DNA of 64,000 nt. Origin: Mytilus edulis (lineage: Eukaryota). Where the stretch lies: the NCBI RefSeq assembly GCF_963676685.1, contig NC_092350.1, forward strand, positions 10,602,001-10,666,000. The letters are read 5' to 3'. A program made the position numbers and the translations under genes. Positions 3,344-48,300 of the stretch are shown here, piece after piece. Within the stretch, counting starts at the first letter, position 1, and each line of letters begins with the position of its first letter. The notes under the pieces were generated by a model. It searched no databases and was not told where the DNA came from. It saw only the letters and a program-made list of their open reading frames with translations.

Positions 3344-3389
3344 ATGAAGGCATTCATTGCTTTCCCATTGATTTGGACTTTAATATTGG
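3344..3389 (+). CDS. LRP4: LRP4-like exon 1 (signal peptide)
   Basis: [16 protein letters not shown] hydrophobic leader; G|gtaagt phase-1 donor matches exon 2. Confidence 0.75.
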
Positions 3390-21300: not shown

Positions 21301-24300
21301 GAATAACTCATGAACCACTTCAACAAACAACAACATTCCTGACTTAGGACAGCTAGGTGCAAACAATATATATATTTTTATTCATTACACATGTTAGATG
21401 CAACTTAGAGACATACATTCAGTTAATAATCCTTCGACCTGTATTCCAGCAGATTAATTACCACTGAAAGAGTGAGAAGACACTCAGGAGGTTACCTTTC
21501 TGTTTTCCCTATTTCTTTTACATTTGATTTTTGCATGCTAGGTATCTGTACATTAGAACAATTTGAAATGTTAGGTATTAAGAACTGAATTGGTGAGTTG
21601 AAAGTTGTAATGCATTTTTTGCTTACCCATGTCTCTAGGTAAATTTATCACATAGATTAAAATTCATAACCAACTTGTCAAATAGCAAAATGTAAATTTT
21701 ACCATGATATTGAGTTTCAAGGGGTATTGCATTTCTTGTGTAAGACTGTAAGTCACAAATCGTGGCTACGGTATTTTGGGTCATTTTAGCTTGGTTGTTT
21801 CTGTGTATGGATTGAAGTTTCATTAAGTTTTCTTAGAATTTATATATTAATATGGAGAAAATAATGAATTTCTGTAACCTTAAAATTCCAATTCAAGACT
21901 TTGTAAATCATTTTTAGAGTGTTCTACTAAAACAGTCATTTCTACATTCATGTTCATATGATTTATAATATTATTACTGCTATCTTTTACATAAAAACCA
22001 AGTGTAATAACAGACGGTCATATGTTGCCAATTATTACAAATCATATTCATATTATACAAGAAAAAAATATCTGCTTTATGTGTATCAGGATGAAGAAAA
22101 AAGTTAGTAAATCAAACAAAAACTATTATTCTCTTGGCAAAATCTCTGTCTGCTTTCAGGAGAATCTAAATACAAATCTTCATCCTTATGACTAGCCCAC
22201 TTTGAGGTCTACTTTTTGTTCCCTCCTAATATGACTAATCTATTTTGAGGGCTCCTTCTTGTTCCCTCCTCATGACCTCTGGTAATTTGTTTTATTTTGA
22301 GGTCCCCTTTCAGTGTTATCCTTATGACCAATCCACTTTGATGTCTCCTTTCTGTTCACCTTTTACGACTAATCCAGTTTGAAGTCCTGACTTTCTGTTT
22401 CATCCTTATGACTTATCTATTTTATTTTGATGTCCCCTTTCTGTGCCCCATCCTTGTGACTAATCCACTCTGAGGTCTCCTTTTTGATGACTATTCCACT
22501 TTTAGGTCCTCTTATGACTATTCCACTTTGTGGTCCCCTCTCTCTGCCTTCTTTATGACTATTCTTTTTTGATGTCTCCTTTCTGATTCATTCTTATGAC
22601 TTGTCCACTTTGAGGTCTCCTTTCTGATTCATTCTTATGACTTATTCACTTTGAGGTCTCCTTTCTGTTCCATCCTTATGACTTATCCACTCTGAGGTCC
22701 CTTTGAGGTCCCCTTTTTGATCCATCTTTATGACTTATCCATTTTGAGGTCTCCTTTCTGATCCATCTTTATGACTTATCCATTTTGAGGTCTCCTTTCT
22801 GATCCATCTTTATGACTTATCCATTTTGAGGTCTCCTTTCTGATCCATCCTTATGACTTATCCACTTTGAGGTCTCCTTTCTGATCTATCCTTATGACAT
22901 CCATTTTGAGGTCTCCTTTCTGTTTCATCCTTATGACTTATCCACTTTGAGGTCTCCTTTCTGATCCATCCTTACGACTTATCCACTTTGAGGTCTCCTT
23001 TCTGCTCCATCCTTACGACTTATCCACTTTGAGGTCTCCTTTCTGATCCATCCTTACGACTTATCCACTTTGAGGTCTCCTTTCTGATCCATCCTTACGA
23101 CTTATCCACTTTGATGTCTCCTTTCTGATCCATCCTTACGACTTATCCACTTTGAGGTCTCCTTTCTGCTCCATCCTTACGACTTATCCACTTTGAGGTC
23201 TCCTTTCTGCTCCATCCTTACGACTTATCCACTTTGAGGTCTCCTTTCTGATCCATCCTTACGACTTATCCACTTTGAGGTCTCCTTTCTGATCCATCCT
23301 TATGACTTGTCCATTTTGAGGTCTCCTTTCTGATCCATATATCCTTATGACCTATCCACTTTGAGGTCTCCTTTCTGTTCCATCTTTATGACTTATCCAC
23401 TTTGAGGTCTCCTTTCTGATCCATCCTTATGACTTATCCACTTTGAGGTCTACTTTCTGTTCCATTCTTATGACTTGTCCATTTTGAGGTCTCATTTCTG
23501 ATCCATCCTTAAGACTTATCCACTTTGAGGTCTACTTTCTGTTCCATCCTTACGACTTATCCACTTTGAGGTCTACTTTCTGTTCCATCCTTACGACTTA
23601 TCCACTTTGAGGTCTCCTTTCTGCTCCATCCTTACGACTTATCCACTTTGAGGTCTCCTTTCTGCTCAATCCTTATGACTTGTCCACTTTGAGGTCTCAT
23701 TTCTGATCCATCCTTACGACTTATCCACTTTGAGGTCTCCTTAGTGATCCATCCTTATGACTTGTCCACTTTGAGGTCTCCTTTCTGATCTATCCTTATG
23801 ACTTATCCACTTTGAGGTCTCTTTTCTGTTCCATTCTTATGACTTATCCACTTTGAGGTCTCCTTAGTGATCCATCCTTATGACTTGTCCACTTTGAGGT
23901 CTCCTTTCTGATCTATCCTTATGACTTATCCACTTTGAGGTCTCCTTTCTGATCCATCCTTATGACTTGTCCACTTTAAGGTCTCTTTTCTGATCCATCC
24001 TTAAGACTTATCCACTTTGAGGTCTCCTTTCTGATCCATCCTTATGACTTATCCACTTTGAGGTCTCCTTTCTGATCCATCCTTACGACTTATCCACTTT
24101 GAGGTCTCCTTTCTGTTCCATCCTTATAACTTATCCACTTTGAGGTCTACTTTCTGTTCCATCCTTATGACTACTGTAAACTTTTTTTGCATGTATTCTT
24201 TATTTTGCGTTTTACCCTTTCTTGATTACTTCACTGCTATTTGATTTCGCGATTTTCTGATGTACTTGATGAAGTTTAATAAAGAATGATCCAAGTTAAC

Positions 24301-27300
24301 ATATTGGCGTTATTTTCGCGAAAACAATTTCCTCACGAAAATTAGTTGGTTTACAGTATTCCACTTGGAGGTCCTCTTTCTGTTCAATCCTTATGACTTT
24401 TTTGATTGATTGATTTCTGAGTTTTAGTACCTAAATCGTACTTGAATAGTACAGATCGATATACATAATGTGAGAACATTGAAAACGGTGAAAAAAGCAT
24501 AACAAGTTGTCCCTTATCAGACTTCAGTTTACATAACACTGTACCTGTAAAACAACATCACTTTTCTATTAGTTTACCTTTCAACATTTAAATAACTGAA
24601 CTGAAGTAAATCTATAAAAATTGGCTAGGGCCCTAGCCCCACCGTGAGCTTATAAAATTGGAAAAAAAATGATACAAGAGACTATTTAAGCAATGTGTTA
24701 CCACTGTTGAGTTTTTGAAAGATCACCCAAGACACCAGTCTTTTGAAGAATGAATGCAGGGGTGCAAATGATAGATTACAAGGTTAAGGGTCACATATTC
24801 TAGTCTTAAAGCAAAACCGATTTATATTTATCAAAAAGCTAAAATAATCTTTTTAAAATCTAAAATAAACATTTAAACTACCATCTGACTTGTATCAGGA
24901 ATTGTGTAAACTTTTGTAGTTTTTTGTGCTTGTGAAATATTTGCACATCACCTTAAAAATATATGAAAATTTATTATTCAAATGTGGTTTTATCAACTGA
25001 AATAGATATATTGTTAAATCAATAGTAATGATTTAACCAGAATATTAAGAAAAGAATATCAAAACTTAATTTAATATTATCGTAGAGAGTTACTTTAATG
25101 AAACTACAACTTGTTTAGTGTAAATATCAAGTAGAAAAATAATATTTATTAACTGGCCATAAATGGCAATTACTATGAAGATTATCCAAATTAGGAAAAT
25201 CTGGGTGAATTATTCTTGACAAGTACCTGCAGACATCTGAGTTTAATCATTACCTCCTTAGCATTCATTGTCTCTCATTAACATTATAACAATTAGTATT
25301 AAGTACTGGTGATCATTGTTATAATTCATGTAAGTGGATACAAGTGTCTGTGTAAGCCAGGAAATTGATGCTTGCCATCTATTAGTGGAATTTGTATCAA
25401 AGAAAATGTTTATATTTATCATATAGATAAAAAAAGACATATTGTTTTTCATTACTGACATAATATGATGTCTGCTAAGTTAAGTAGTACTAGTCTACAG
25501 GTCTAGTGTTTATGTTTGAATGGTCTTTGATCCAGACCTTGTGACAGTCTGTGTTCAGCTCAAAATAGTATACATATATTATAATCCAGAGGTTTGGGGT
25601 CAATCATATTACCAATTATCTTGACAGTGTCCAAAATTCAAGCGACTAAGCTCCTTTCAACCCTTGTCCTTATATATCCTCAGTCAATTATAAAAATAAT
25701 CTTTCTTAAACCAGTGGCATAATTTGGATCACAAAAAATTATTAGAGTGTTTAGTGTCACATCTTTGATATTTCTGTTGACCAACAAACAAGTCTGCTGA
25801 CCATTACTTTAATTCCCTTTGTTTTACAGCCTATATGAATTACAAGTTGATATTTTAAGTCATATGATTCTCCTATATTGTAATTAAAACCAACCAAAAA
25901 GCTCCTTATTTTTATACTGATACAATAAGGTAATAGATATGTTATTTTTCTAGTAAAATGATATTTGAAAAGTGTTATTTAATCATTTTAATGACCAGGT
26001 TTGACAGATACTGTTCACTGCATAATATTTACCCATTGAACCAGCTTGTAAAAATTACTACAGAATTCTCAATTTTTTTTTACAGCAAAGAAAAATAATG
26101 ACTTCCAAATGTTTCTCGCAATTTACTACACATGTAAATAAATTTAATGATAATCCCTCTATTACAGATTGTGCTTGCATTAAATTCTTCTGTGTAAAAA
26201 TAAACAGTTTAAGAACAAAATATCTTTTACACCATTGTACAAATACTACCATATGACACTTATAATAGGAAATTGTATGATGAAACATTTGTTTTACTTT
26301 CATATAATATTGTGCTATGCAAGACGATGGAGATATTACAGTTTATATGATAAAACACTCATCATCTACATAATACAAAAAATACAAATAAGTTACAATT
26401 ATGTTTAAAGACGTCCAATATATGCATATATCGGACTTCTCTTGGACTGAATTTTAACGTGCGTATTGTAATGCGTTTACTTTTCTACATTGGCTAGAGG
26501 TATAGGGGGAGGGTTGAGATCTCACAAACATGTTTAACCACGCCACATTTTTGCGCCTGTCCCAAGTCAGGAGCCTCTGGCCTTTGTTAGTCTTGTATTA
26601 TTTTAATTTTAGTTTCTTGTGTACAATTTGGAAATTAGTATGGCGTTCATTATCACTGCACTAGTATATATTTGTTTAGGGGCCAGCTGAAGGACGCCTC
26701 CGGGTGCGGGAATTTCTTGCTACATTGAAGACCTGTTGGTGACCTTCTGCTGTTGTTTTTTTCTATGGTCGGGTTGTTGTCTCTTTGGCACATTCCCATT
26801 TCCATTCTCAATTTTATGCATATAGGAATTACAGGCAATTTATTTTTTGTATATAAATGATAACATGCACAACAAAATTTAATTCATTTTTACTAATATG
26901 AAATTTTACAAATCCAATTAAATAATATAAGTAGAGAAATAATTCCCAAAGAAGAGAATACGTTATCGGAGTGAACTCTTTTTGACTAGCTACCAGTTAA
27001 AGCCTATTGATTTCACAAATACTGTAAAACTACTTTTTTTCTCAACAATTCAATCATTCTTCTACTCAACTACTCTGGATTATTAAATTTCAGAGTTTCT
27101 AAATATTTCTACATAATTAAAAGCTAAGATATGATTGACAAACACACCCAGGTGGTTAGGTTTGTGTCCATGTTTTATTAGGTTTCAGGTAGCCTTTCAA
27201 TTGACACAGGTGTTCACTTTGATGTATTACACACCTGTTATCACCTGTAGTCTGACCATCTTACCTATATAATACCTACATGTTACCTACATGTTCGTAC

Positions 27301-30300
27301 ATCTGATTATAGATCATCAGAATATATTGACATATACAATTAGTAAATAAATAACGTCTTCTTTGAATTAGAAATATGCATTGCATGCTATGAAATTTTG
27401 TGTCTATTTAAATTTATTTGCAAACACATGTATTTATAATAGATTATACCTTTACATGCATGCTGTGCAGTTTAAATTCAGGTGCAAAACTTTTGTCTGC
27501 ATTAAACATTTAGGTTCTTCTGTTTCATTGCCAGTTTTCAGTAACAAAATTTGATACAACCAATAAAATAATGACCTCTGCTGAAGGTTAAATTGAAAAT
27601 TTCTGTATGAATGGACATAAAGTATTTGTACTATACAAATTATCTTGCATTTGTCTGAATTATTTATGTGATCAAATGCTTATACAATGTAAAGATACCA
27701 GGCTTGGAATTTTGTATGCCCTACTCTATACAGGCATTTCACCTTCAAAAGACGCATCAGTGCCATCAGTGACACTGGAATCACAAAAAATAAAAAGTGC
27801 GAAGTCCAAAGTTAAATATCATTGATCATAAGAACCTAATATTAAGATGGTTTTTACCAAAAACTTAAAGTAAGATTCTTTTCCTGTGAAATGAATAAGA
27901 CCAATTAAGTACTATAACCTGTTGTCTTATTATGTTTTTAACTGAGCACCATGACCTCTATTTTTTGTTATCTTTTCCAGATCAAACATGCCTTCCAAAC
28001 CACTTCACATGTAATAACCAGCGATGTGTAAAAATAGAATGGCTTTGTGATGGAGATAATGATTGTGGGGATGACAGTGATGAACTCAGTTGTCGTAAGT
28101 TACTGTTACCATAGTGATGCACTCAGTTGTCTTAAGTTGCTGTTACTATAGTGATGAACTTAGTTGTCGTTAGTAACTGTTACTATAGTGATGAACTCAG
28201 TTGATGTAAGTTACTGTTTCTAAAGTTATGAACTCAGTTGATGTAAGTTACTGTTACTATAGTGATGAACTCAGTTGTCTTAAGTAACTGTTGCTACAGT
28301 GATGAACTCAGTTGTCTTAAGTTACTATTACTATAGTGATGCACTCAGTTGTTGTAAGTTACTGTTACTATAGTGATGAACTCAGTTGTCTTAAATTACT
28401 GTTACTATAGTTATTAACTCGGTTGTTGTAAGTTGCTGTTACTATAGTGATGAACTCAGTTGTCGTAAGTTACTGTTACTAAGTGATGAACTTAGTTGTC
28501 TTAAGTTACTGTTACTATAGTGATGAACTCAGTTGCAATTGTTCAGTTGTCTTAAGTAATTGTTACTATAGTGATGAACTGAATGTCAAAAGTTACTTCT
28601 CATTTGTCAGAAGTAACTTCAATGTGCTGTGGCGCCTCACTCATTGATACGGACAGCTAACCATGTGTAAATACTTGTACATTTTTTTTATTCAATCTTT
28701 TATTTTAGATTGTACAACAAAATGATAAAAAGCTGTAAAATAAAAAGAGTTGTTGAAAGGAATCTTATATATGCAGAAGAAACATCAACAGTAACTAAAC
28801 AAAACTGAGTTCAAAACTTAGCAAGCATATGTGTCCATATTGATATCATGCACTGCTAGTACAATCACATTTTTTTCTTATGCAAGATTCTTCATTCATA
28901 TTTCAGCTTTTAATTATCAATTCTAATCAGTTAATGAAAAGATTTTGTGTTTATTTCAGCCTCAAAGAATTGTAGTACTGACCAGTTCCCCTGTAGTGAT
29001 GGAAGTTGTATACCCAAACATTGGAAATGTGACCATGACCCTGACTGTACTCACAGAGAAGATGAAAGAAACTGTGGTAGGTAACAATAAGATATGTTAT
29101 CCCTTTGATACATAATAGTTATTTACTTACATGTCATGTTCAGGTTGTAGCATGTATAGACAACTCAGATCCATTCTGTAGAGATTTAATGAATTTTGGA
29201 TATCAGTCAATTTTTGATGATTTTCATTAATAACTGCCATACTGTAATTAATTTCAAGTGTACATAAAATTACATTGATATTATCATAATAATTATTGTT
29301 ATGATATCACACATACCTTGGTAGCATTAAATACACATAACTTTTTGGATAGACTTATTATTAGTTAGTTCACTTGTATGGTCTACATCTCTTGAGAAAT
29401 GTGAATGACAAAGTAACGAGAAGTTCTTGTGGATTTACAGCCTATTCTGTAATCATTGTAATTAAAGTATCTTTCTCCAGTTCTCTATAGTTCTGGCCAA
29501 AGTAAAATGAAAAGAAAATAAAGCTGTTAAAAAAATAACCCTATAATTAAATATTTCAGCTGTGACATGTAATGAACACCAGTTTAAATGTCAAGACAAG
29601 TCTAGCTGTATACCTAAAGAATGGAGGTGTAACTCTATACTAGACTGCTCGGATGGCAGTGATGAAGATAACTGTAGTAAGTTAATGTTCCAGCTAACAT
29701 AACTGATAATTATTGGTAGTTGGTCAATGTTCCTGCTAACAAAGCTGGTAAAAACAGAGATGTTATTCTTGCCTAATAGATTGTTGCTTTTCCAGCCAAC
29801 TTGGCTGGTTGTAAAAGCAATTAATACTATGATGAGTTACTTTTCCAGATAATGAAGATAGTACATGTGTATTACAACTATGATATTATATATTTGGTAG
29901 TTAATTACTGTTTCATCTGAAAACCTGGTAACAATGACCTTGTTTTGTATTTCTAAAAAATAAAATGCCTGTAAATTCGGAAATATATGTGAGGTTTTTA
30001 TTAATGCGAAAAATGCAACTGGGTGAGTATCGCAATAATTAGAACTGGCATTTTGATAACAGAAACATAGATCTTTATGCAGATTATTTTGGTAAACGCA
30101 ATAACTAAACTCGCAATGTTTGTCCATTGGTGAAAAATCACAATAATAAATGCATGCAATAATTTCTGAATTTACAGCTGTAATAAAAATACCCAACTCC
30201 AAGGAACATTCCAATCAGAAATTCCCTAATCACATGGCAAAATCTAAAGCTCAAACACATCAAACAAATGGAAAGTTCCTTATCACATGGCAAAATCTAA

Positions 30301-33300
30301 AGCTCAAACACATCAAACAAATGGAAAGTTCCTTATCACATGGCAAAATCTAAATCTCAAACTCATCAAACAAATGGAAAGTTCCTTATCACATGGCAAA
30401 ATCTAAAGCTCAAACACATCAAACACATGGAAAGTTCCTTATCACATGGCAAAATCTAAAGCTCAAACACATCAAACAAACGGAAAGTTCCTTATCACAT
30501 GGCAAAATCTAAAGCTCAAACACATCAAACAAATGGAAAGTTCCTAATCACATGGCAAAATCTAAATCTCAAACTCATCAAACAAATGGAAAGTTCCTTA
30601 TCACATGGCAAAATCTAAATCTCAAACTCATCAAACAAATGGAAAGTTCCTTATCACATGGCAAAATCTAAAGCTCAAACTCATCAAACAAATGGAAAGT
30701 TCCTTATCACATGGCAAAATCTAAAGCTCAAACTCATCAAACAAATGGAAAGTTCCTTATCACATGGCAAAATCTAAATCTCAAACTCATCAAACAAATG
30801 GAAAGTTCCTTATCACATGGCAAAATCTAAATCTCAAACTCATCAAACAAATGGGAAACAACTGTCATATTCCTGACTTGGTACATGCATTACCTTATGT
30901 AGAAAATAGTGGTTTAAACCTGGTCTTATATCTAGGTAAAGTTGTATGCTTGTATGACAGTCACATAAAATTTTACTGCAGTGAATTTATCTTGTTAGTT
31001 TTAAAGAAAGATTTCCTTTTGAGTTAAAATCATAATTGGTACGGATTTAGATTATCACTGTCACTTATAAATGGATATTGTAGATGAGCAGCAAGCCTTC
31101 TGCAGTAAACATGAATTCACCTGTCTACAAACTTCTACATGTGTTCCATTAAAGATGAGATGTGATGGTAAAAATGATTGTAAGTCTGGGGAAGATGAAT
31201 TACTTTGTGGTAAGTTTGTTGTTACATGTAGTTTCGTCTGTTGTAAAAACATGGAATAGATACTCATTTGAAACTTTATCAATTCAAAAACTATAGAAAA
31301 ATTCCAACCTACCCCTCTTAAAAATGCTTTTTGTTGTTTAGAGAAATAAGGTCTTCTAGAAAATTACTATCCTTTATGCAATACTTATCATCGATAGAAT
31401 TCAGTTGGTAGTTATGAGGCTGATCACATCCTAAACATTGTTTGGAGGAATTGAAGTAAGATATATGTTCTAATCATGGTATATTTTTACTACTCCATAG
31501 CAATAAATTCCCTACTCAAATAGTCTACAACAGTGAACATAAATGAGTGTTTGGGGAAGATAATTTGTTTCAGTCACATTCAATACTACAAAATTCTGAA
31601 ATAGCTCTACAATTCTGTAATTGTCATTGATGTTAGGAGTTATTGTTATGGATTTTTTTTTTAAAGTAATATCAACAGAAAAAAATGTGGGAAAAACTGT
31701 TACACAAAATATCCAGGACTGAAAATGGAGTTTTAGGTGAAAAGTTATCTTGGTGTATCATTCTTTTTTCACTTTTGTTCACAGAAGTGTCAGATAAATC
31801 TGACTGTTCATCAGATGAGTATGTATGTGGTGATGGATCCTGCATAGCTATGGACTGGGTCTGTGATGGAGTAACGGACTGTGCCAACCTAATGGATGAA
31901 CAGAATTGTAGTAAGTTACCCCACCCAATTCCACTCTGTTGCCTACTTTCTGTATATTCATAAGGATTGTACTTTAGATAAAAAATCATGAGGAATTCTT
32001 TTAGGTCTGAATTTGCCAATAAAATAGTTTAACTGAAGTGTAGTCAGAACCTCAGTTTGAATAAGATTTCCTCCTTTAGTTCACTTGGTATGTACAGATA
32101 TGAAATATTCTCCTGAAATCAAACAAGCAATTGTAACCAAACTTCGATTGAATTATTCCTCGTATATTTTGAATTCAGATTTTGCCAGACAATCATGTTA
32201 ACCAACCAAATTGAAAGACCAAGATTTTTCTAGTTAGTGAAGATAGTGGCCATTGTTTATGTAGACAATTGATAGTTTGCCTATTTTTTAGCTTTTTTGT
32301 CTTGTAATCCTAACCAGTTCAGATGTGACAATGGTCATTGTATCAGTAGATCTAAAAGATGTGATGGAGTTGATGACTGTTCCGATGACAGTGATGAAAA
32401 GGGGTGTGGTAAGTTGATAGAACATCCCACTAATAAATACTTTATCCCTCCCACTTACTGAATTTATTCAATAAGAATGTGTAAACAATTGATGGTAGGG
32501 AAGTTTGTAAGTTATATTTGGACAGCAAACTTATTTTCTTTGTCCCCTTTAATTGTGGGTTTAGGGGTTGATTGTAATTGTTTGGTGCTCTATTCACTGA
32601 TCTGTTTAATGTGGCAACTGTATAATAAATTTTATTAGTATATGATAAATAGTTTTGTTGAATCAAATGGGTCATGTCAGAATGATATTTGTACTAACTA
32701 TAACGCTCATGAAAGTTTGTTAATCTGCAATAAAAATGGTAAGACAGATTCAACCGACGTTGCATTGGTTGTAATAGAACATGAAGTGTGCACATTCTAT
32801 TTGATTTTTTTATCTTAAATATTTATGAGGTTTCTCATACTAAAAAATGGACCTAGCCATTTATACTTATATTATTTTGAAAAAAACGACAACTATTATT
32901 ATTATAATTATTTTTTGTAATATTCCTATATTTTTCATTACCTAGAAACCCTAAATGGAGAGATACAGTGCAGTCCAGGACAGTTTAGTTGTGGCAATGA
33001 GAAATGTATTTCCTTGGACAAGAAATGCAATACATTTGATGACTGTGGGGATTCTTCTGATGAACTGAACTGTGGTAAGTGTCATGGTAACAAGAACTTA
33101 GTAATTTGTCATGGTAATAAGAACTTAGTAATTTGTCATGGTAACATTTCATGGTATCGTACATTGTGCTAGTTATGGATTTTATGTTTGGTAAATAAAA
33201 TTCTTGTATGAAGACATAATGCATGGGTTGGGTTCACTAATCCAACGGGATTTGCAATGCATTTATTACCCCCATCATGTCCCTTTTGGTTATTTTCTTG

Positions 33301-36300
33301 ATTTAAACAGTAGCTGTTTATGACATAAAACTATATCATTTCTGTATTGACAGTATGGTAGAATAATCCCTCATTTGAATCATATTTTTGTAAGGTTTAT
33401 TTGCCAAAAACTGAATCTTTTGAGGATATAAGATATTTCTTTTGCCTGAGTTATAATACACTTAAGAAGTAGAAAAAAATGGTAAATTATAAATTATAAT
33501 AATAAAATTGAGAATGGAAATGGGGAATGTGCCAAAGAGACAACAACCCGACCATAGAAAAAAACAACAGCAGAAGGTCACCAACAGGTCTTCAATGTAG
33601 CGAGAATTTCCCGCACCCGGAGGCGTCCTTCAACTGGCCCCTAAACAAATATATACTAGTTCAGTGATAATGAACGCCATACTAATTTCCAAATTGTACA
33701 CAAGAAACTAAAATTAAAATAATACAAGACTAAGCTATGAATCATCTGTTATAAGCTTTCATTGAGGATGTCTTGTTGATGATATTTCTCTACTGATTTA
33801 TAAAGATTAAGTATTATACAATACAGACAGTTTAATCTGTGTGAGAAGACTTGTGATGTTGATGACAGAACATGAAACACAAGATGACAGACTGATGATA
33901 GAATTACCATACTATTACATAATTATTTATCAAAGAAAATAGGCTACAGTTAAATGTGTTGAATAGTTTTTTTTAAAGATTACACAATAATTTTTTTTTT
34001 TATCAAAGGTGTTGATTTCAATACAAATTTTACCTACTTTCATGTTCTAGTTCTTTAAAGCAAACAAAAAAGACAAATAGTTGTTTCATTTTTAGCATCA
34101 TGATCTTATTTAAAATGTTCCTTTGTGCCAGGATGTTATGAGAAATTTTTGGATTGAACACTGTTATTAAGAAATAATTGAGTAGTTGTTGAATGAAATA
34201 GAATCTTATACATTTTCATATGAAGAAATGTTGATTTGTGGAACTAGTAGATTAGGTTACATGTCAAGAAGACAACAATACATTTACTGTGGAATCATTT
34301 ATTTTTGTGGTTAAAGAAGAAAATGTGGGTTTTTTTTTGTGGATATTAGATTTTGGGAAATTGACAAGTTTACATATATATATAAAATAAACCACATAAT
34401 CCACAAAAATTGGTATACTGCAAAAATGATGATTCCACAGTGCACAATTTTTTAAAAGACATATATTCAGGTCCTTCATTCATCATATAAAAAGGAAGAT
34501 GTGGGATGCTTGCCAATGAGACAACTCTCCACAAGAGACCAAATGACACAGAAATTAAAAACCATAGGTCACTGCATGGCCTTCAACAATGAGTAAAGTC
34601 CACACTGCATGGCCTTCAACAATGAGTAAAGTCCACACTGCATAGTCAGCAAGGCCCTGAAATGACAAATGTAAAACAATTCAATATGTTTGTCTTAGAT
34701 GAGACTGGTGTTTATATCATATCAAATAATTGACATATTTAACTTATTTCAGGTGAGGAGGTTCTGATTTATGCCCAGGGACAATACTTAAGGAAGATAG
34801 CACTGAGCATGCCTAACTATCCCGATGTTAAGATACCACTGAAAGGTGTGAAGAAGATCATAGCCATTGATTACAACCCTATAAGTAACATGATTTACTG
34901 GAGTGACCAGGATCTCAACACTATTAGTGCAGCTTATCTGGATGGTTCAGGTACAATAGTTAACTCCCCTTCTTGCTAATACTCATCTTTTCTTACACTG
35001 TGAACAAAAATGACAATAATGACTCTTTGTTGAAAAATGGTAGCCAGTATTTCTGGCCATGAAAACATTTGACTTTTTCCACATTTTAAATCAAGTCAGA
35101 TGATAGAATTTTTATGGTTTCAAATATCTCTTCTACTATTTAACCATATATGTAAGAGTAAGTTGTAGTCGAGTTTAAGAAGTTATATTGTTATCAAAAC
35201 CAGGGTCATTTGTTTTTTGAAAATAACAGATGTCCCACATACTTTAGTAAAAGTATATGTAACTCAGGTGATATATCAATATTGGCAAGTAACCCACTGT
35301 CAACACTAGGGACTATATTTGTGGACAACGAAAATCAAGGGATGACAATTGTCGTCTCGGACCTATTTGTATAATATTAGGACAAATCTTTTCTTATCAA
35401 AGGTCAGAAAATAATATCAAGCAAAGTGAAGTCATCTGATGGTATAGCAGTAGATTGGATCAACCAAGTTTTATTCTGGACAGATACAGGCTCTGATAAG
35501 ATAGAACAGGCAAATCTAGATGGTACCAAACAGATTACTATCCTGTCTAAAGATCTTGACGAACCAAGAGATATTGCAGTGGACCCAGTAGAAAAGTGAG
35601 TTTAACATGGAACTGATGTATAACATTTCTAAGCTGTGCTTATTTAGGGATATTTCTGTGGGCTGATTAGAAATGTGAATATAGCAGACCACTCTCCTGT
35701 ATAGATGACTGAAATATTTAAGGAATAATACAGTAGAAAGAGAGAGAAAATAAGTTCAAGCACATTGATGTAGGCGTTATCTATATATGATAGTACCCAA
35801 AAGTACTTGTACTATTATAATCTACAAGGAAAAGTTAATTTTATGAAACTACAATATGTTTGAATTTAAAAAGTTTAAGAATGTTCACCCCAAAGCATTT
35901 TAAAAGGGAAACTGATTTGTAGCATCTTCGAATTTTAGAAGTAAGACACTTTTGTTTATATAAACTGTTGTCTTGTAGTTTAAGACTGACTAATGAATTG
36001 TGTTAAATTTCAGATTTGTATATTGGTCTGACTGGGGTCAACAACCTAAACTAGAGAGGTCAAGATATAATGGAACAGACAGACAAATCCTTATTGACAG
36101 TGAGATTCAATGGCCTAATGGACTAGCATTAGACTTGGCAGACAGGAAGCTTTACTGGGGAGATGCTAAGAAACAAAGAATAGAAAGAGCTAATTTGGAT
36201 GGTTCAAACAGAGAGGTTGTAATATCAACTGATATACCTCATTTGTTTGGGCTGAGTTTGCTTGGTAAGTTCTTTAGTATATTCCTTTTTTCATACATTC

Positions 36301-39300
36301 GTTAACTCGATCACAACAAAACAGAATAGAAACAAAATTGTGCCAAATGTTAGCTTGGAGTGAACAATCTCTAGCCTTTTAAATTCCCAACATTTTTCAG
36401 ATAAGCTTACTGATAAAGGAGGAGTTTCTTTTGATTTTTGATTTGTCAGATATTGATGGAATCCATAAATTCAAAGGCCAATAAATAAATATAGATTCCA
36501 CAACTGCAACATGTGTGTTACGATATTTCTCCACTCGAGACAGTTAAATTTTAATATTTAAAGGCTTGCTGAGCTTTTTAGATAATTAAAATTCAACTGG
36601 CGAGAGAGGAGAAATATCATAATACACGAGTTAAAGTGGTGAAATTTGTTTCTCTAATGAATTTTATCCTTCCTTTTCAAAGATTTAAAGAAAGTTGTGT
36701 ACTTTTTATGTGATGTCATTAGGCAAAGTCACCTGTTTTTATGACATCACAATAGGCTTATTCAGAAGAAGCCAAGAACATTTAATGTCACAGTTAAATT
36801 TCGATCAATCATTTGCCAAGAACAGATTTTTCATTAGTATAGAAAAATATTTTTCTCACACCAATCAAGAAGTGTGAAAAAAGCGCAAAAATTAGAGAAA
36901 AAAAAAACCAGATTCAGATTCAATGAAACAATCAAATAAAATCCAGATAAAATAAATACTTTTACAGTTGAAAATTTTTTACTTACTAAGAAAGGGATTA
37001 ATAAATATACAATCTAGATAGGAATAGAACTAGTAAATAAATTTATGACACCAAACCATATACACACTTTATACTTGTTTTTTGTGTATTTAGGTAACCA
37101 TATTTACTGGTCAGACTGGAAAGATACATCTTTAAATAGATGTGATAAAAGGACGGGAAAGAACAAAGTCACCATATTGAAACATCATAGCAGGAATCTA
37201 GGCATGTTCATGGATGTCAAAGCTATCAAGGTCAAACTTATAAAAGGTAAGGTCAAACACATTCATATCTGGACATGGGAAATGTTTGGCTGTGGAAATA
37301 AATGGAAACAATTAATGTCAAATTGCCTAAATACCGGTCACTTCATGAAACTGAGCATATTCATTGGTTTATAGAATTATTCATGTTAAATTTCCCATAA
37401 TTGTGACATATTCAGGGTTGTCAATTATCAGCACCAGACTGCCATTATAAAACAGATATCATAGAAGGGAGCTGTCAAATTTCCCTAATACTTCAGGAAT
37501 GTATTGTCTTAAGATATTTGAGTATTTTGTTCTCTGAATTTCAGGAGACAGAAATAAATACTGTGGATTTGATGAGTTCCATTGTGAGAATGATCTTTGT
37601 ATTGGGAACAAGAAACGATGTAATGGCAAGAATGATTGTGGAGATAATTCTGACGAGAAAGACTGTGGTAAGAATATAAAAGAGGGAAATCTAGTCTCTT
37701 ACAAGTATTAGACTAATAAAAATATATCAATAAAACAACTTGTACCAGTAATGTTCAAATTGTTTAATTTTTAAAACAAATTAAGGAAAAGTAGTTATAT
37801 TATATATGCAGCCAAAAACAGTTGGATGAAACAGGAATATATACACACTCAATCCATGAAAAGCCATTATATCACAAATTATAATGAATCAACAGATTTT
37901 TTGATTTAATATTGAAATACAAATGCCCAACAACCTAAATTATTGTTGAATAGTACCCTTTATATAGTATTAACTTTTCAGCCTCATATATAATAATTGA
38001 TGAAAAAACAATATATGGAACTCAGCAAAACCAACAAATTCTGTCTTTTCTATAAATAGATTTACCAGCCACTTGTGACAAAGATAATGGAGGTTGTCAG
38101 CAGACGTGTCGTATATTTGGCCAGCAGGCAAGATGTGACTGTTTCCCGGGCTATTATCTACAATCAGACATGAGGAACTGTAAAGATATAAATGAATGTA
38201 ACTTTGAAGGCACATGTAGTCAAAAGTGTACAAATGTGCCGGGAACATATAAATGTTATTGTGTTGATGGTTACACATTAAAGCCAGACGGCAGAGGCTG
38301 TAAAGCTGATGGTAGGTAGACCAGGGTGGTTACTTTTTAGATACATGTAGGTATACCAGGATACCAGTTAAAATCTTGTGCAAATTTCTAACAGCTGTAT
38401 CTACTGATATCAGGGTACAATTAAATATGTATTGTAAAGCTTCTGTAAGGTAAACTAATGTAACATTGAGAGGGGAAATGGGACATTTGTCAAAGAGATG
38501 ACAACCCGTACAAAGAGCAGACAACAACAGAAAGCCACCAATGGGTCTTCAATGTAGCGAGAAAAATGTGTTTGTTGAAGCCTAGTACAGCCTTTCTGTA
38601 CAGGTTTTATGTGGTTGGAAGACTAAAGAAAATAGAAGAAATGGTAACATTTCTTTGTTCAAAAAAGTATTCTGATATGAGAAGACTACAGAATCTTTGC
38701 TGTCAAAAATCCCAGAATCAAGTATGAGTCAAACTGCTGCAATGAAATTACTAGAATGACATATCTTTCTTTCATTTGGACAAATGGATGCAATGTTTTC
38801 TTATCTTAAACTCTTTGAATGTTTCCTTCTCTTAAACTCTTTGAATTGCCAGTATTAAATAAAACAAAGAATAGCAACATTATGAAAGTTAAACTTATGA
38901 ATTTAATTGCAGCTTATGTTATTTTTTGGAATTAATAAAAACTTAAAATGTATATTTCAGGTGGGAAAGCATATTTGATCTTTGCCAACCGTGTTGACAT
39001 CAGGCGAGTCCTACCAGATAAGTCAGAGTACGATTCTATACTTCAAGGTTTACAGAACGCCATTGCTTTAGACTTTCATATAGATAAGAACTATGTGTTC
39101 TGGTCTGATGTGGCTCTAGATAAGATTAAGAGAGCTTATATTAATGGTAGTGAGATTAAAGAAGTTGTACAGTATGGCTTAGAAAGTCCTGGTAAGTTAT
39201 AATGATAGAAAGTCCTGGTAATTTATAATCATAGAAAGTCCTGGTTAGTTATAATCATACAGAGTCCTGGCAAGTTATGATCAGGGAAAAGGAGAAACAT

Positions 39301-42300
39301 TTAATTTGTTTAAAAATTTTAAGATTGAGAATTTGTAACCAAACAGTGTTCATTTACCTCATAGTCATCTTGTAATAGAACAGAATACCCCATATAAAAA
39401 TAAGGGGATGTGATATGATTGCCAATGCGACAGCGATCAACCAAAGTTCAAATGAAGTAGATGTAATATAAAAAAGAAGATGTGGTATGATTGCCAATGA
39501 GACAACTATCCACAAAAGACCAAAATGAAACAGACATTAACAACTATAGGTCACCGTACAGCCTTATATACCAATAAGCATGCTTTCTTGAGACACAAAC
39601 AATTAAGAGAAAATGGAAGTGATTGGGTTTAAATATTTATATAATCTTTTATTTATAGGAGGCCTAGCTGTAGATTGGGTCCACGATCTGTTGTTTTGGA
39701 CTGATGCTGGAACATCTACAATAGAAGTGACAGACTTAGATGGAGTCTATCGTAAAGTGTTGATATGGGAGAACTTAGAGAAACCAAGGGCACTTGTAGC
39801 TCATCCTGGAAATAGGTCAGTGAATGTATCAAATTTGACAGCATATACTGTGGAATCATTATTATTTGTTGGATACCAATTTTCATGGATTTCGTGGGTG
39901 CAGTTGAACCAAGAAATTAAATGTTCAATGTATAACAAATTTTCCATAGGCTTGTATGCAAACTTCCTCAAAACCACAAATTAAATATCATTGAACATGT
40001 AAATTGTCCTTAATCTATGTAAATTGGTACCCACAAAAATAAATGAATCCACAGTTTTTGATTGATTGAGTGTTACTTGCTTAATATCATACATATTGAC
40101 ATATCAAATAAAAAAAATTGAAAGACCTCACAAGCAGCCTGTACAGGATATGAAACAATGTTAGATAAGTAGTACTAGACTACTGGTAGTATTGTCTAAT
40201 TGTTAATATTACAATATAATGGCATACAAAATAGCATCTCACGCATGTTGAAATACTTTACTTGTGCAGAAGAGAGAACCTGTCATGACACCTCTCACAA
40301 TGCTATACGGGACATACATTTTCTACTGCCTAATCATTAAGTAAACTGATCAAATTATCAATAATTATTGTTATATTTTCAGATCCATATTTTGGACAGA
40401 TTGGGGAGGTACACCTAAGATAGAGAGTAGCTGTATGGATGGTAGTTATAGGAATGTTATTGCTAACACATCACTGTTCTGGCCTAATGGTCTAACTATA
40501 GATTATACCACAGACAAACTTTACTGGGCTGATGCTAAACATCATGTTATAGAATGTGCTGATTTAGATGGTTCTAACAGGAGAACTGTGCTTAATAAAG
40601 GTGAGAATTTATAGATACCAAGGGGGCTCTACTTTATAAAGATAAGAATTTATAGATAACAAGGAGACTCTACTTTATAAAGGTTAGAATTTATATATAC
40701 CAAGGGGGCTCTACTTTATAAAGGTTAGAATTTATAGATACCAAGGGGGCTCTGCTTTATAAAGGTAAGAATTTATAGATACCAAGGGGGCTCTACTTTA
40801 TAAAGGTTAGAATTTATAAATACCAAGGGGGCTCTACTTTATAAAGGTTAGAATTTATAGATACCAAGGGGGCTCTACTTTATAAAGGTTGGAATTTATA
40901 AATACCAAGGGGGCTCTACTTTATAAAGGTTAGAATTTATAGATACCAAGGGGGCTCTACTTTATAAAGGTAAGAATTTATAAATACCAAGGGGGCTCTA
41001 CTTTATAAAGGTTAGAATTTATAGATACCAAGGGGGCTCTACTTTATAAAGGTAAGAATTTATAAATACCAAGGGGGCTCTACTTTATAAAGGTAAGAAT
41101 TTATAGAGAACAAGAGGTTGTACTTGGTAAAGGTAAGGCGTTGAAGACCCATTGGTGGCCTTTCAGCTGTTTCAGATCTTTGCTTCATGCTTTTCATGTT
41201 GCTGCTGTCTTTTTGACACAATTCCCATTTCCATTATCAATTTTAAGAAATCATAGAAGTAAGAATACACTGATAACTACAAGACTCGCTATATAAAAGC
41301 TATATGAGAAAAACATACTCTCTTCATGATGCAACAACTCTTCGTAGGTCTGGAGGTAATCTGTTATGAGGCAAAATTTTTGTCCCTTTCCATCATACCA
41401 GTTTTCCTGTAACAGTCCTATTTTGCACTATTCAGCCATGTTGTCCAATCCTAGCTATTGTGTTAATTTTTAAAAGTTTCCTGTTCTGATAATAGCAACT
41501 AGACATTTGCTAGCAACAACAATTAATTCAAGGTGTATTGTTTGTTATTTATTTTTTAATTATCTTATTTTCAGGATTGCCACATCCTTTTGCCTTGACC
41601 TTATTTGAAGATGAACTTTATTGGACGGACTGGAATACAAAAAGTATAAACAAAGCTAACAAGTTCACTGGGAACGATGTAGAGACTGTACATAACAGAC
41701 TTCATTATCCCATGGATATACATACATTCCATCCTCAGAGGCAGCCAACAAGTAAGTACACTATTGTAGCCTGGGTAAAGTTAATAAACTGAAAGGGAAG
41801 GGATACTTAAGGTCATGCTTAGGATTTAATGGTCACAGAGTTATTTATTGTTTCAGGTTTTACAAATTGTAGGGTCATAGATCTACTCATGATTCTTCAG
41901 TGATGATAAAGAAATAATTCATGAGGGCTTGAATTTATACTGATTTTACCACGGGTTGGGCTTTTATGCTAAATATCATACCACAAGTGACAGCGAGGGG
42001 TAAAGTCAGCTTAAAGGGCAAACTCGTGGTAAAATCAGCATAAATTCAAGCCCCCATGAAGTATTTCAATTCAAATAGGACAAGTATGGCTATTCTTTTG
42101 AATCAAAGCACTGTAAGTGAAGGCAGATATTTGCCATTCCAGTAAATAAGCGCACTATATATTAAATTGACGTAAAACAATGCAGCTAACTGAATAAATG
42201 ACATGCTGAAACTATTTACAATAACATATTTTGATAGGTTTGGATGAATTTAAATGATTATTTTACTTATATAAAAAAAGACTTATAACAGATTTTAGCA

Positions 42301-45300
42301 TGGTTTGTTTGGGTTTCCTTGTTGTGATGATTTTCGGTTTCACAAGCGTGTACTTTCCCGTAAAATGCTTATATTCTTACATCATAGCTCATTCATGAAA
42401 ATGCATATAACATGGGAGTTATTTTCAGAACAGCACAAACATTTTATTTATATTTTACCACAGTTTTGAAAGCGTTTGAAGAACGTCATGTTAGAAGATT
42501 GATTTTAGACAAGATTGTGATATATATAAGACAGTGTTTTCAACATGAACTTTTACGTTTCATGATTTCATAAAAGATGAAAATGTAAGTAATAGATATA
42601 TGACTGTTGTGTTGTAATGCAAATGGATATAGATCACATAAGTAAAGTATAATTTTATTTCAGTGAAGAATGTCTGCGGTAAAAACAATGGAGGATGCAG
42701 CCATTTTTGTTTGCCAAATTGGCATGGTTACAGCTGTGCTTGTCTAACAGGACAACATCTGAAGAAGGATAACAGAACATGTGTTGAGAGTATGAATCGT
42801 TTTGTGGTGTTTTCCACCATGTCTGATCTGAGACGTATCAGCGTAGACACGCCTGACAGAACAGATGTAGTTCTCCCCCTCAATAAAGTACTGAGTGCCG
42901 TGGGGATTGATTTTGATGCTAAGAATGACATGATATATTGGACTGATACAGACCTCAATGTCATCAAAAGAGCACATTGGAATGGCAGTCATGAGAAGGT
43001 AAAGGCATTACTGTAAATTACTAAATTGTTTAGTACATTTATTATTGCTTTTTTTTAACAATAGGAAAAATGAGAGATTGACGGTTATAACTAGAGGAAG
43101 TTCTTCATTCAAATAATGCTATCAAAATCTAAAATATTTTTTTTTATTTAGCCTCACAAATTTTGCTATAATAAAAAGTTTTTAAACATCGCTAAAACTT
43201 CTTAATTCACAGTATCATTTATCATATGCATATATTTTATGGTCATTGTTATATTTAATTGTAATTATATTTGACAGGTTGTCATTGGAAACCAGGTGGA
43301 GTCTCCAGTAGGTGTGGCTATAGACTGGATTAGTCGTAAGATCTACTGGACAGACCAGGATACAGACTTTATAGAAGTAGCCAATCTGAATGGTAGTATG
43401 AGGAGTATTCTGATCTCTACAAGTCTGGATAAACCTAGAGACATCATTGTAGATCCTTTGGAAGGGTAATAAGTCTTTTATTTATTTATTTATAAGATAA
43501 TTGATTCCCACATTTGGTTGTACATAATTTATATTTACCTATTATTACTAAATTATATATAGACTTTTGAGGTTTTTAACAAGTTCATCACTGTTGTATT
43601 ATTATACGACCGCAAAAATTTTAATTTTTCGTCGTATATTGCTATCACGTTGGCGTCGTCGTCGTCGTTGTCCGAATACTTTTAGTTTTCGCACTCTAAC
43701 TTTAGTAAAAGTGAATAGAAATCTATGAAATTTTGACACAAGGTTTATGACCATAAAAGGAAGGTTGGGATTGATTTTGGGAGTTTTAGTACCATCATTT
43801 TAGGAACTAGGGGCCAAAAAGGGCCCAAATAAGCATTTTCTTGGTTTTCGCACTATAACTTTAGTTTAAGTAAACAGAAATCTATGAAATTTTGACACAA
43901 GGTTTATGATCACAAAAGGAAGGTTGGGATTGATTTTGGGTGTTTTGGTTCCAACAGTTTAGGAATTACGGGCCAAAAAAGGGCCCAAATAAGCATTACT
44001 CTTGGTTTTCGCACAATAACTTTAGTATAAGTGAATAGAAATCAATTAAAATAAAACACAAGGTTTATGACCACAAAAGGAAGGTTGGGATTGATTTTTG
44101 GAGTTGAGGTCCCAACAGTTTAGGAATAAGGGGCCAAAAAGGGGCCCAAATAAGCATTATTCTTGGTTTTCGCACCATAACTTTAGTATAAGTAAATAGA
44201 AATCTATGAAATTTTAAACACAAGGTTTGTGACCATAAAAGGAAGGTTGGGTTTGATTTTGGGAGTTTTGGTCCCAACAGTTTAGGAATAAGGGGCCCAA
44301 AGGGTCCAAAATTGAACTTTGTTTGATTTCATCAAAAATTGAATAATTGGGGTTCTTTGATTTGCCGAATCTAACTGTGTATGTAGATTCTTAATTTTTG
44401 GTCCCGTTTTCAAATTGGTCTACATTGAGGTCCAAAGGGTCCAAAATTAAACTTAGTTTGATTTTAACAAAAATTGAATCCTTGGGGTTCTTTGATATGC
44501 TGAATCTAAATATGTACTTATATTTTTGATTATTGGCCCAGTTTTCAAGTTGGTCCAAATCGGGGTCCAAAATTAAACTTTGTTTGATTTCATCAAAAAT
44601 TGAATAATTGGGGTTCTTTGATATACCAAATCTTACAGTGTATGTAGATTCTTAATTTTTGGTCCTGTTTTCAAATTGGTCTACATTAAAGTCAAAAGGG
44701 TCCAAAATTAAACTAAGTTTGATTTTAACAAAAATTGAATTCTTGGGCTTTTTTGATATGCTGAATCTAAACATGTACTTAGATTTTTGATTATGGGCCC
44801 AGTTTTCAAGTTGGTTCAAATCAGGATCCAAAATTATTATATTAAGTATTGTGCAATAGCAAGAAATTTTCAATTGCACTGTATTCAGCAATAGCAAGAA
44901 ATCTTCAATTGCACAGTATTGTGCAATAACAAGAAATTTTTAATTGCACAGTATTGCGCAATAGCAAGAAATCTTCAATTTCACAGTATTGTGCAATAGC
45001 AAATATTTTCAATTGCACAGTATTGCGCAATAGCAAGAAATATCTAATTGCACAATATTGTGCAATAGCAAGAAATTTTCAATTGGAGTTATCTTTCTTT
45101 GTCCAGAATGGTAGTTGAATCAACTTAAATTATTGTTTTATACAATATACAATGTATATTCACTTTTACTACCAACTGATAAATTAAAACAATCTTTACA
45201 ATTCAGTGATAACAAGCACTTTATTTTACATTTTAATATTTTATGATGTATTTAAATGAGTAGTTATTGTTGCAAACTCCATTAGAAATTTGAATTGAGA

Positions 45301-48300
45301 TCAGTTTTAGAAAAAGGGAAAGGGGGATGTGAAAAAAAAATGGGGGGGGGGGGGGGTAAATTTTTCTCATTTCAGATTTCATAAATAAAAAGAAAATTTC
45401 TTCAAACATTTTTTTGAGAGGATTAATATTCAACAGCATAGTGAATTGCTCAAAGGCAAAAAAAATATTTTAAGTTCATTAGACCACATTCATTCTGTGT
45501 CAGAAACCTATGCTGTGTCAACTATTTAATCACAATCCAAATTTAGAGCTGAATCCAGCTTGAATGTTGTGTCCATACTTGCCCCAACCATTCAGGGTTC
45601 AACCTCTGCGGTCGTATAAAGGTGTGCCCTGCGGAGCATCTGGTTAGGCTTATTTTGATAATTGTGAGATTTTGTTTTTAATTTCACAATTTCATATTCC
45701 CCCCCCCCCTCTGCAGAGGAGGGGGCATTTAGTGATATCCTTGTCCCTATGTTCATCCCTCTGTCTATTTTTACATACATCCTGAAGTTGGTTTCCATTC
45801 TCTAACATGCAATGCTTATTACAGCAATACACTGATTAAATTAGATTTGGGTGACATCACTTTTACAGTTTTGAGTTATGTCCCTTTATAACCTGCAAAC
45901 AAGGGTCATCTGACACTTTCTCCATTTATTAATGTATTATGTAGGTTTATGTACTGGAGTGATTGGGGAAGTAGACCTAAGATAGAGAGAGCAGGAATGG
46001 ATGGGAATAGAAGACAGGTTCTGATCAGTAACAATATCACATGGCCCAATGGTCTAGCACTGGACAAGAAACTTAAACGTCTTTATTGGACAGATGGAGG
46101 AAGGAGTGTAATTGAATCTGTCAAGTTTGACGGTACAGACAGACAGGTAAATAGGTTACATCTCAATTGTAACATCATATGCTCACAGGCAGAAAAGCAT
46201 CTGTATTGGAAAGATGTAGGAGCTAGAACTTATCAAGGTGTACAATACAGAAAGACATGTAAGCTGGCAACACAGCAGAATGATCAAGTCAAAAAGATTG
46301 AGGGATTGTGTAATAGAATTTGTCAAATTTACCATGTCATGCTTACAGACTGTTTAGTAAGAATCAATTTTTTTTAGCAAAATCACATGAACAAATCTAT
46401 TTCTGTTGAACAGATTGAAGTTGAGAAAAGTTCCTATTATGCACACCAATAACACATTTAGAAAATATCCTAACATTCTGTTTTTAAATTAAGTAAGATT
46501 CCAACAGTTTTACTACATTTATGTGGCTTAAATCCTTGAAACTACAAATATATATACTATCTCTTTCAGATAATTATATCTGTAAATGTTCCACGACCAT
46601 TTGGCATTGCTTTGTTTGAAGACACCATCTACTGGACAGACAAGTTAAACAAGGGAGTTTACTCTGCAAACAAGTATAATGGATCAGGACGTGAAGTAAT
46701 CGCCTCGCAGCTTGATAATGTGATGGACATCAAAATGTTTTATAAACCACAGCCTAGAGGTAAATATAATCAAATTTTTCATTAGAATTTACTTTCAAAT
46801 GCACAGTTGACATATTGAACCTAATGAGTGAGCCTTCATATTGAATTATTTTGATTAACAAACGTTTGATTGCTACAATATCATCAAAAATAGCTTTGAA
46901 GTGTTCATTATCACTGAACCAGTATATATTTGTTTAGGGGCCAGCTGAAGGATGCCTCCGGGTTCGAGAATTTCTCGTTGCATTGAAGACCTGTTGGTGA
47001 CCTTCTGCTGTTGTCTGCTCTATGGTCGGGTTGTTGTCTCTTTGGAATATTCCCCATTTCCATTCTCAATTTTATTTAATTTTTGATGATATTGTAGCAA
47101 TCAAATGTTTGTTAATCAAAATAATTCAATGTGATTTAATCAAAATATGAAGTAATGTGATAAGAGCTGTTCTATAAACACATACATGGGACCCAGGGAA
47201 GACACTTCCAAATCTCAACTATGCATGGGTGTCTTCCTATGTTTTTACATAGTGGAAATGTATTTGAAATTTTATTTCCATTCTATAGGTGGTTACCCCA
47301 TTTTTAAAGTGCCTTCCCTGGGTACCATTTATGGATGGGAGTCTTCCGATGTTTTTACATAGTGGAAATGTATGTGAAATTTTATTTCCCCTCTATAGGT
47401 GGTTACCCCATTTTTAAAGTGTCTTCCCTGGGTACCATTTATGGATGGGAGTCTTCCGATGTTTTTACATAGTGGAAATGTATGTGAAATTTTATTTCCC
47501 CTCTATAGGTGGTTACCCCATTTTTAAAGTGCCTTCCCTGGGTACCATTTATGTTTAAAGAAACAGCCCTAGTTTGGTAATTTTCATACATATCACCTTT
47601 GGTCATGATGTTATGCATCAATTGTGTTCATGAAGTTTCAGAATTTGATTTTATTTCAAAATTCATTTTTCATGGAATTACTCATTATTTCTTTTTGTAA
47701 TGCATTAGATTTTGGATAACAGTACTGTAGTTGAAAATTTGCTGGCATTGATTTAGATTTGATGGTAGCAAATATATGTTTTACTGTTTTTGGCACTATC
47801 AAATCGCCAATTAACTGCGGCTACTCTTCAACTAAAGAACTGTTTTTAAATGTTTAAGCATCACAGGAAATGCTGGGTAATCAAAGGTCAATTACTTCAG
47901 CAACCTGTCTTGCAGTATTTATCTTTATCAATAAACACATAAAAAAATGAGGTAATAAAACTATATTTTGAAATGGAATTTTAACATCCTTATTTCAGGA
48001 AAGAATCCATGTGCTAATGACAATGGTGGATGCAGTCATTTATGTTTGATATCAACAACAGGGTATACATGTGTCTGTCCTACAGGGATACTTATGTCAC
48101 CAGATGGAAGGACTTGTAATAAAGGTAGGTATGGGTGTTATTGTCTTCATGGTTTTTTGGGAGTTCAAAAGCTGTCAATCTGCATTTTGCTTTGTTTTTA
48201 AAGGAAAAGAAGACATAGCCAGTAGTAGGAAAAGGGGAGGTAATATAGAATTATAATGCTCTCATTCATCATTAATATGTGTGCTGTTCACATTAAGGAA

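Follow-up and report, generated by a model that had tools for sequence, protein, structure and literature searches.

An LRP4 gene of Mytilus edulis with a fifth, EGF-less YWTD propeller of apparent LRP5/6 origin in its LDLa array

We analysed a stretch of 64,000 nucleotides (nt) from the blue mussel Mytilus edulis (assembly GCF_963676685.1, contig NC_092350.1, positions 10,602,001 to 10,666,000), referred to here as the window; all positions given are those of the window. Its forward strand carries an LRP4 gene (3344..63063), which we rebuilt as 40 coding exons with AG/GT at all junctions and a single frame of 2147 amino acids (aa). The product is identical to the M. edulis RefSeq protein XP_071181988.1 (P0287; 0 of 2147 residues differ), which RefSeq names only 'LRP4-like'. 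It differs from the M. galloprovincialis model at 5 residues, and the three complete Mytilus models are 97–98% identical. The domain order is A8-P-A-EE-(P-E)4, in which eight LDLa repeats (A), a YWTD beta-propeller (P) and one further LDLa precede two EGF modules (E) and four propeller-EGF units; the profiles behind this order were derived from the window's own domains, and divergent EGFs of other proteins may escape them. The propeller within the LDLa array, encoded by exons 10–13 and hereafter called the insert, is the subject of this report.

All exons lie on the forward strand. Exon 1 (3344..3389) encodes a signal-peptide-like start that matches the N-terminus of P0287, exons 2–8 (17102..32408) encode the ancestral LDLa repeats 1–7, and exon 9 (32946..33074) encodes LDLa8', an added repeat that most resembles the last ancestral one and has a counterpart in scallops. 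Beyond the insert, exon 14 (37545..37667) encodes LDLa9, which corresponds to the ancestral eighth LDLa, and exon 15 (38060..38311) the two EGF modules. The body follows with LRP4 propeller 1 (exons 16–19, 38961..41751), an EGF, propeller 2 and an EGF (exons 20–24, 42664..48124), propeller 3 and an EGF (exons 25–28, 48745..51177), and propeller 4 and an EGF (exons 29–35, 52747..59044). A hydrophobic run read from the sequence of exon 38 (61119..61221) marks the transmembrane segment, and exons 39–40 (62004..63063) encode a tail with NPxY and without PPP(S/T)P, followed by the stop. The LDLa array, two EGF modules, four propeller-EGF units, single membrane span and NPxY tail stand in the order of LRP4, and the body propellers fall in the LRP4 propeller 1–4 (p1–p4) clades (24 of 24 by profile, and also in trees). 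The canonical layout of eight uninterrupted LDLa and four propellers is not what the Mytilus protein shows; because its nine LDLa are split by a fifth propeller, we file it as an LRP4 variant.

The insert is divided among exon 10 (34753..34950; 198 nt, phase 1-1), exon 11 (35403..35595; 193 nt, phase 1-2), exon 12 (36014..36264; 251 nt, phase 2-1) and exon 13 (37094..37246; 153 nt, phase 1-1, with no EGF after it), which together make 795 nt, or 265 aa, entered and left in phase 1. Pfam places Ldl_recept_b in exons 11 and 12, Ldl_recept_a in exons 9 and 14, and EGF families in exon 15; Ldl_recept_b was absent from exons 10 and 13 when each was scanned alone. The linker from the insert to the following LDLa is 0–4 residues long and contains zero cysteines in Mytilus and Ostrea, which leaves no C-terminal EGF cap, and with the known exons masked, the window gave no scoring hit for a further exon of LDLa, EGF or propeller type. 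AlphaFold2, run on the isolated 265 aa with a 10-row alignment, predicted a closed six-bladed fold with YWTD-type repeats (predicted local distance difference test, pLDDT, 91.4; predicted template-modelling score, pTM, 0.90). Its top structural match is LRP6 E1E2 (8ffe; template-modelling score, TM, 0.95), with all LRP propellers scoring close. Exons 10–13 encode a complete YWTD propeller without an EGF cap. An initial annotation, made from the letters of the window, had described just such a propeller inside the LDLa array and had proposed structure prediction as a check; Pfam, the cysteine count and the predicted fold agree with it.

Junction reads were counted in samples of two stranded RNA runs that belong to a single study (X21 and X22, in that order below; about 6% of each run); run X24 was left out of the counts, its coverage of these exons being minimal. 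The junctions had 8 and 19 reads for exons 9-10, 20 and 20 for 10-11, 30 and 21 for 11-12, 54 and 41 for 12-13, 29 and 14 for 13-14, and 35 and 33 for 14-15. Every junction from exon 8 to exon 16 has reads in both runs, with 11–54 at those besides 9-10 and 13-14, and one contig of run X1, from a separate study, contains the same joints. The block encoding the extra propeller is spliced into the main transcript. Complete exclusion of exons 10–13, which would have undone the initial annotation, is contradicted by reads at every step; in-frame skipping, which it had considered possible, is permitted by the phase-1 borders, but no 9-14 joint is among the joints listed, a list that leaves aside 44 weaker ones, and rare skipping may occur. 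All six exonic read variants tested, two of them within the insert, are synonymous. An annotation artefact was also considered and is excluded by the junction reads together with oyster open reading frames from Logan contigs that have the same layout. Dispersed repeats at 33500-33740, 34480-34680, 35280-35360 and 38510-38570 are covered to great depth by RNA reads of both strands that come from elsewhere in the genome.

The insert resembles a propeller of another receptor family more closely than those of its own protein. Its best non-self match among 1092 propellers is LRP5/6 propeller 2 (p2), in the Sinanodonta copy (48.7% identity, 276 bits), against 37–41% and 195–226 bits for the four other propellers of the Mytilus protein, and the inserts of four oysters likewise match LRP5/6 p2 best. 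With class profiles built from 43 LRP5/6 proteins and 43 of 98 LRP4 proteins, LRP5/6 p2 was the best class for 6 of 6 inserts (313 to 286 bits for Mytilus), and 24 of 24 control propellers were assigned to their own LRP4 class. When the inserts were divided into quarter-blocks, 18 of 20 agreed with LRP5/6 p2. Trees under two models united five inserts in one clade (support 100/97 and 100/95) and joined this clade to LRP5/6 p2 (100/98 and 100/99). Grouping the insert with LRP4 p1, p2 or p4, the propellers covered by the approximately unbiased (AU) test, was rejected (p-AU 0.0012, 0.0047 and 0.0030); a tandem copy of an LRP4 propeller is rejected on these tests and on the intron positions. An ESM Atlas search returned generic LRP clusters only. 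Profiles, trees and introns agree in identifying LRP5/6 p2, and not an LRP4 propeller, as the apparent source of the extra propeller, which supplies the donor that the initial annotation had suggested seeking through a phylogeny of individual propellers.

The intron evidence is independent of these comparisons and comes from animal LRP5/6 loci obtained from a metagenome scan. In loci L002 and L004, whose p2 is identified by 492 and 483 bits for the p2 profile versus at most 347 for others, this propeller is encoded by four exons of 201, 196, 251 and 159 nt with phases 1-1-2-1-1, against 198, 193, 251 and 153 nt in the insert. All three internal introns of the insert share alignment column and phase with both loci; any LRP4 propeller of the window has just one internal intron in common with the LRP5/6 loci. 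The EGF and propeller 3 of L004 start in an exon that comes after those of p2. The last p2 intron is present in L001-L004 and L013 and not in the coral-like loci L005 and L010, in which an apparent donor site past the end of exon 12 proved to be coding sequence, not intron. LRP4 and LRP5/6 records occur on equally long contigs in Sinanodonta, Biomphalaria, Owenia and Latimeria, a hint that the two genes are linked in those four species. Some corals have short LRP5/6-like proteins with the first two propellers only (P0082, P0083, P0084 and P0088), and in one of these proteins four LDLa follow.

We consider it very probable that an LRP5/6 p2 block was copied into LRP4 in the ancestor of mussels and oysters. 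Retention of the introns argues for copying at the DNA level rather than retroposition, and the match of 3/3 internal introns bears out the earlier suggestion that a phase-1-bounded block could have arrived by exon shuffling. The four-exon genomic unit lies between two phase-1 introns in LRP5/6 and would therefore be exactly the piece copied. Its landing place in LRP4 would have been a phase-1 intron within the LDLa array, with a copy of the last LDLa on either side, and the donor's EGF would have stayed behind in the next exon. Since that EGF lies in the following exon, the missing cap needs no separate loss.

The insert has a narrow distribution. We compared 144 LRP4-like cluster representatives and set aside six rows, of LRP1/2 type or other; 136 were LDLa-first, and a propeller lay within the array in 5 of these 136 (Mytilus, Saccostrea, Ostrea, Crassostrea virginica and the Magallana cluster). 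Among all stored proteins with both domain types the insert occurs in 30 of 282, exclusively in mussel or oyster clusters, and the species that have it are five Mytilus and five oysters. It was not found in four scallop genera, Tegillarca, unionids, venerids, Mactra, Mya, gastropods or cephalopods, nor in the sampled annelid, nemerteans, brachiopod, arthropods and deuterostomes; the ark Tegillarca is represented by a single incomplete model of 1548 aa whose N-terminal half is intact. Five propellers are thus not the common invertebrate state, and the lineage-specific receptor of the initial annotation holds in so far as the form is limited to mussels and true oysters, although it is not confined to one species. 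The tick protein P0163 (Ixodes scapularis, 2423 aa) is no further case, since its extra propellers sit in the body and not in the LDLa array; its six body propellers and nine LDLa may reflect a tandem duplication or an assembly artefact. Two LRP4-like proteins of Sinanodonta, P0329 and P0199, have close locus tags on one contig and are a possible tandem duplicate.

The LDLa repeats add a second character. Among the matches listed, the repeat after the insert compares best with the ancestral last one and the repeat before it is the added copy, which reverses the earlier view of the 'ninth' LDLa as the addition: it is the ancestral eighth. The added copy also occurs in three of four scallop genera; the scallop Ylistrum (P0325) is without it, unlike P0251, P0324 and P0326, through a missed or skipped exon or a loss. 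Oysters have two LDLa after the insert, the first of them A7-like, giving the reading A7-A8'-P-A7'-A8, with noisy LDLa scores that make the repeat assignment a moderate one. LRP5/6 as the source of the extra LDLa is unsupported by this comparison. As reported in PMC4936043, Arcida are basal and Mytilida are sister to Ostreida, a grouping unstable in the smallest matrix. The pattern fits this tree without losses: eight LDLa in the ark, an added LDLa in scallops, mussels and oysters, and the insert in mussels and oysters. Presence in both mussels and true oysters implies that the insert is old, and the split between them has been put at about 396 million years (bioRxiv 10.64898/2026.08.14.744788). 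We regard the insert as a candidate shared character for Mytilida and Ostreida, and the Mytilus protein as a real, expressed and old variant of LRP4.

What the extra propeller might do is suggested by its ligand pocket. In LRP6, the E2 funnel is reported to hold the sclerostin tail through R449, W465, W491, N493 and H534 (PMC7585440), and the NC-linker of Wnt8 or Wnt1 to enter the same funnel, where it chiefly drives binding (bioRxiv 10.1101/2022.10.21.513178). With the numbering transferred by alignment from an anchor peptide given in PMC7585440, the corresponding Mytilus residues are R468 in exon 11 (= LRP6 R449) and W484, W510, N512 and H553 in exon 12; 5 of 5 are kept in Mytilus, Saccostrea, Ostrea and Magallana. 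Vertebrate LRP4 is described as modulating Wnt through sclerostin, Wise and Dkk1. The first three LRP4 propellers are reported to form a rigid arc, with the LDLa repeats unresolved in cryo-electron microscopy (PMC10266037). With the insert, LRP4 would have five loop-binding pockets, the added one being of the kind that in LRP6 receives the Wnt NC-linker and the sclerostin tail, and it would hang on a flexible LDLa string and not in the rigid arc. The whole-receptor features of LRP5/6, a PPP(S/T)P tail and four propellers before three LDLa, are missing from this protein. PPP(S/T)P motifs have a role in signalling; none was found in Mytilus, Ostrea or scallop LRP4, and P0011 and P0019 had four matches each. 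With NPxY in its tail and PPPSP absent, the receptor would retain or endocytose any Wnt or Wnt antagonist that it bound, without signalling, and LRP4 would be strengthened as a Wnt modulator. A putative site for capture of Wnt or a Wnt antagonist on a non-signalling endocytic receptor is the likeliest role, and, judged on its own, a tentative proposal that falls a little short of an even chance; LRP5/6 origin and capture function taken jointly appear about evenly balanced between true and false.

Several observations weigh against this reading of origin and function. In 4 of 4 trees, built without constraint, the insert is sister to all LRP5/6 p2, corals included (90/95, 97/92, 98/94 and 96/92), and is not nested among the molluscan copies; the AU test does no more than fail to reject nesting with a bivalve LRP5/6 copy (p-AU 0.27 and 0.25). 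The retrieved sequences included no LRP5/6 from a mussel or an oyster, and the sampling lacked pearl oysters, pen shells, limids and mussel genera other than Mytilus. At seven strict diagnostic LRP5/6-p2 columns Mytilus keeps 1 residue and oysters 3–5. The insert also diverges fast, with 39–48% identity from mussel to oyster versus 61–80% for p1, p3 and p4. The C. virginica insert keeps three of the pocket residues and has lost two, and most of the five recur in other propellers of LRP4 and LRP6, so their conservation indicates an intact pocket only and not Wnt specificity. Finally, E2 of LRP6 acts together with E1, and E1 was no part of what was copied to LRP4. Canonical LRP4 p2 (42664-46759) is as divergent between mussel and oyster as the insert (45–49%, with 77–80% for p1), which may reflect a functional hand-over to the insert.

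These points can be read in other ways. The origin could be the same and the pocket re-tuned to a non-Wnt ligand, such as an agrin-like loop or a matrix or immune protein, giving LRP4 a mussel- and oyster-specific endocytic or adhesion site. The fast divergence, the lost diagnostic residues and the absent E1 partner would suit this, as would the R/W/W/N pocket of LRP4 beta-2, which is reported to bind the agrin loop (PMC10266037). The likeness to LRP5/6 p2 nevertheless holds across the whole domain, and we consider re-tuning unlikely, though the most serious of the alternatives. The domain might instead be a tolerated passenger or spacer: inserted in frame where the protein is flexible, it would have gone to fixation and would persist solely because the receptor cannot leave the endoplasmic reticulum unless the domain folds. 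LDLa repeats unresolved in the LRP4 structure are consistent with such flexibility (PMC10266037), C. virginica has dispensed with two pocket residues, and scallops and the ark do without the insert altogether. Yet the phase-1 borders permit a clean loss, and the block has been retained in all ten species that have it over about 396 million years, with pocket residues kept in 4 of 5 lineages and no skip joint among those listed; a passenger seems improbable to us.

The propeller of LDLR binds LDLa repeats at acid pH. By analogy, the insert could be an intramolecular latch that binds adjacent LDLa to release or mask cargo, or LDLa9 could substitute for the EGF cap. The position among LDLa, the short linker to the next repeat and a Mytilus insert less acidic than the donor (37 K+R and 35 D+E versus 32 and 44) point this way, but oyster charge (33 and 40) is nearer the donor, and we rate a latch as very improbable. 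A different history, equally improbable with the passenger, would derive the insert from an ancient, lost LRP5/6-like paralogue, or from an early pteriomorph gain followed by loss in scallops with the ninth LDLa as a scar. The basal tree position agrees with this, the oyster order resembles one duplication around the insert, scallops keep A8', and body propellers often pair Mytilus with scallop in trees. On the other side, no loss has to be assumed to place the gain on the published tree (PMC4936043). Because nesting within LRP5/6 is not rejected and the last intron, present in L001-L004 and L013 but absent in coral-like L005 and L010, points to a bilaterian-type donor, we favour drift after release from LRP5/6 constraint over an ancient paralogue.

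Returning to the proposal of a copied LRP5/6 p2 with a capture function, the initial interpretation of a lineage-specific receptor with an additional, putatively ligand-binding surface is supported overall, with the donor now added. A review describes molluscan LRP4s as largely resembling the fly protein (PMC8006230). The layout and origin are apparently undescribed: no describing paper was found among literature listings and abstract openings, where domain figures in genome papers could be missed. In its fullest form, the gene would be a natural LRP4-LRP5/6 chimera in which the main Wnt-binding propeller of the co-receptor, grafted uncapped onto a non-signalling endocytic receptor some 400 million years ago, has been retained as a tethered decoy for Wnt, accompanied by two nested markers (the LDLa duplication for scallops, mussels and oysters, and the insert for mussels and oysters); this whole combination is possible but doubtful. 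If true, it would provide two nested genomic markers for a node that has long been unstable in bivalve phylogeny. The probable transfer itself is a clean case of domain shuffling between LDLR-family paralogues of opposite Wnt roles, with the donor introns still legible. The insert shows that an LRP-type propeller can persist uncapped by EGF, and offers a natural single-propeller construct with which to ask if E2 alone captures Wnt.

Elsewhere in the gene, repeats are frequent. In intron 1 a segment of several hundred bases is directly duplicated, as near-identical open stretches at about 5200-6000 and 6610-7270 indicate, and intron 2 contains a 41-bp minisatellite of 40 copies (22511-24172) that accounts for the strong strand skew there. 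Tandem arrays at 28076-28535, 33080-33146, 39180-39283 and 40591-41114 lie at the 3' ends of exons 3, 9, 16 and 18, with 12.5 copies of 37 bp after exon 3; their unit covers the exon 3' end and donor site and yields rows of surplus donor-like sites.

Compared with known systems, the protein is closest overall to LRP4 (MEGF7), reported to have eight LDLa, six EGF and four propellers (PMC10266037). It shares the whole canonical core in order, the NPxY tail and body propellers that class with their LRP4 counterparts, and differs in that the mussel and oyster form adds one LDLa (two in oysters) and the EGF-less fifth propeller. The insert itself is closest to E2 of LRP5/6 (Arrow) in sequence, fold (TM 0.95 to 8ffe), four-exon structure and pocket residues; in contrast to E2, it has no E1 neighbour and no EGF2, is flanked by LDLa in a receptor without PPPSP, and diverges faster, native p2 being 73–75% identical between Sinanodonta and chiton or octopus. 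LRP1 and LRP2 (megalin) also have a propeller ahead of an LDLa cluster, but with an EGF between: among 13 apparent propeller-LDLa exceptions, 4 of 4 checked had six cysteines in the gap, and snail LRP2 propellers are only 22–37% identical to the insert. YWTD propellers without a following EGF occur in ROS1/sevenless, and the nidogen chain 1npe_A (267 aa) is another, which suggests that the fold can stand uncapped. The nidogen and ROS1 propellers are distant from the insert in sequence (131 bits) and, unlike that of mussels and oysters, are not flanked by LDLa.

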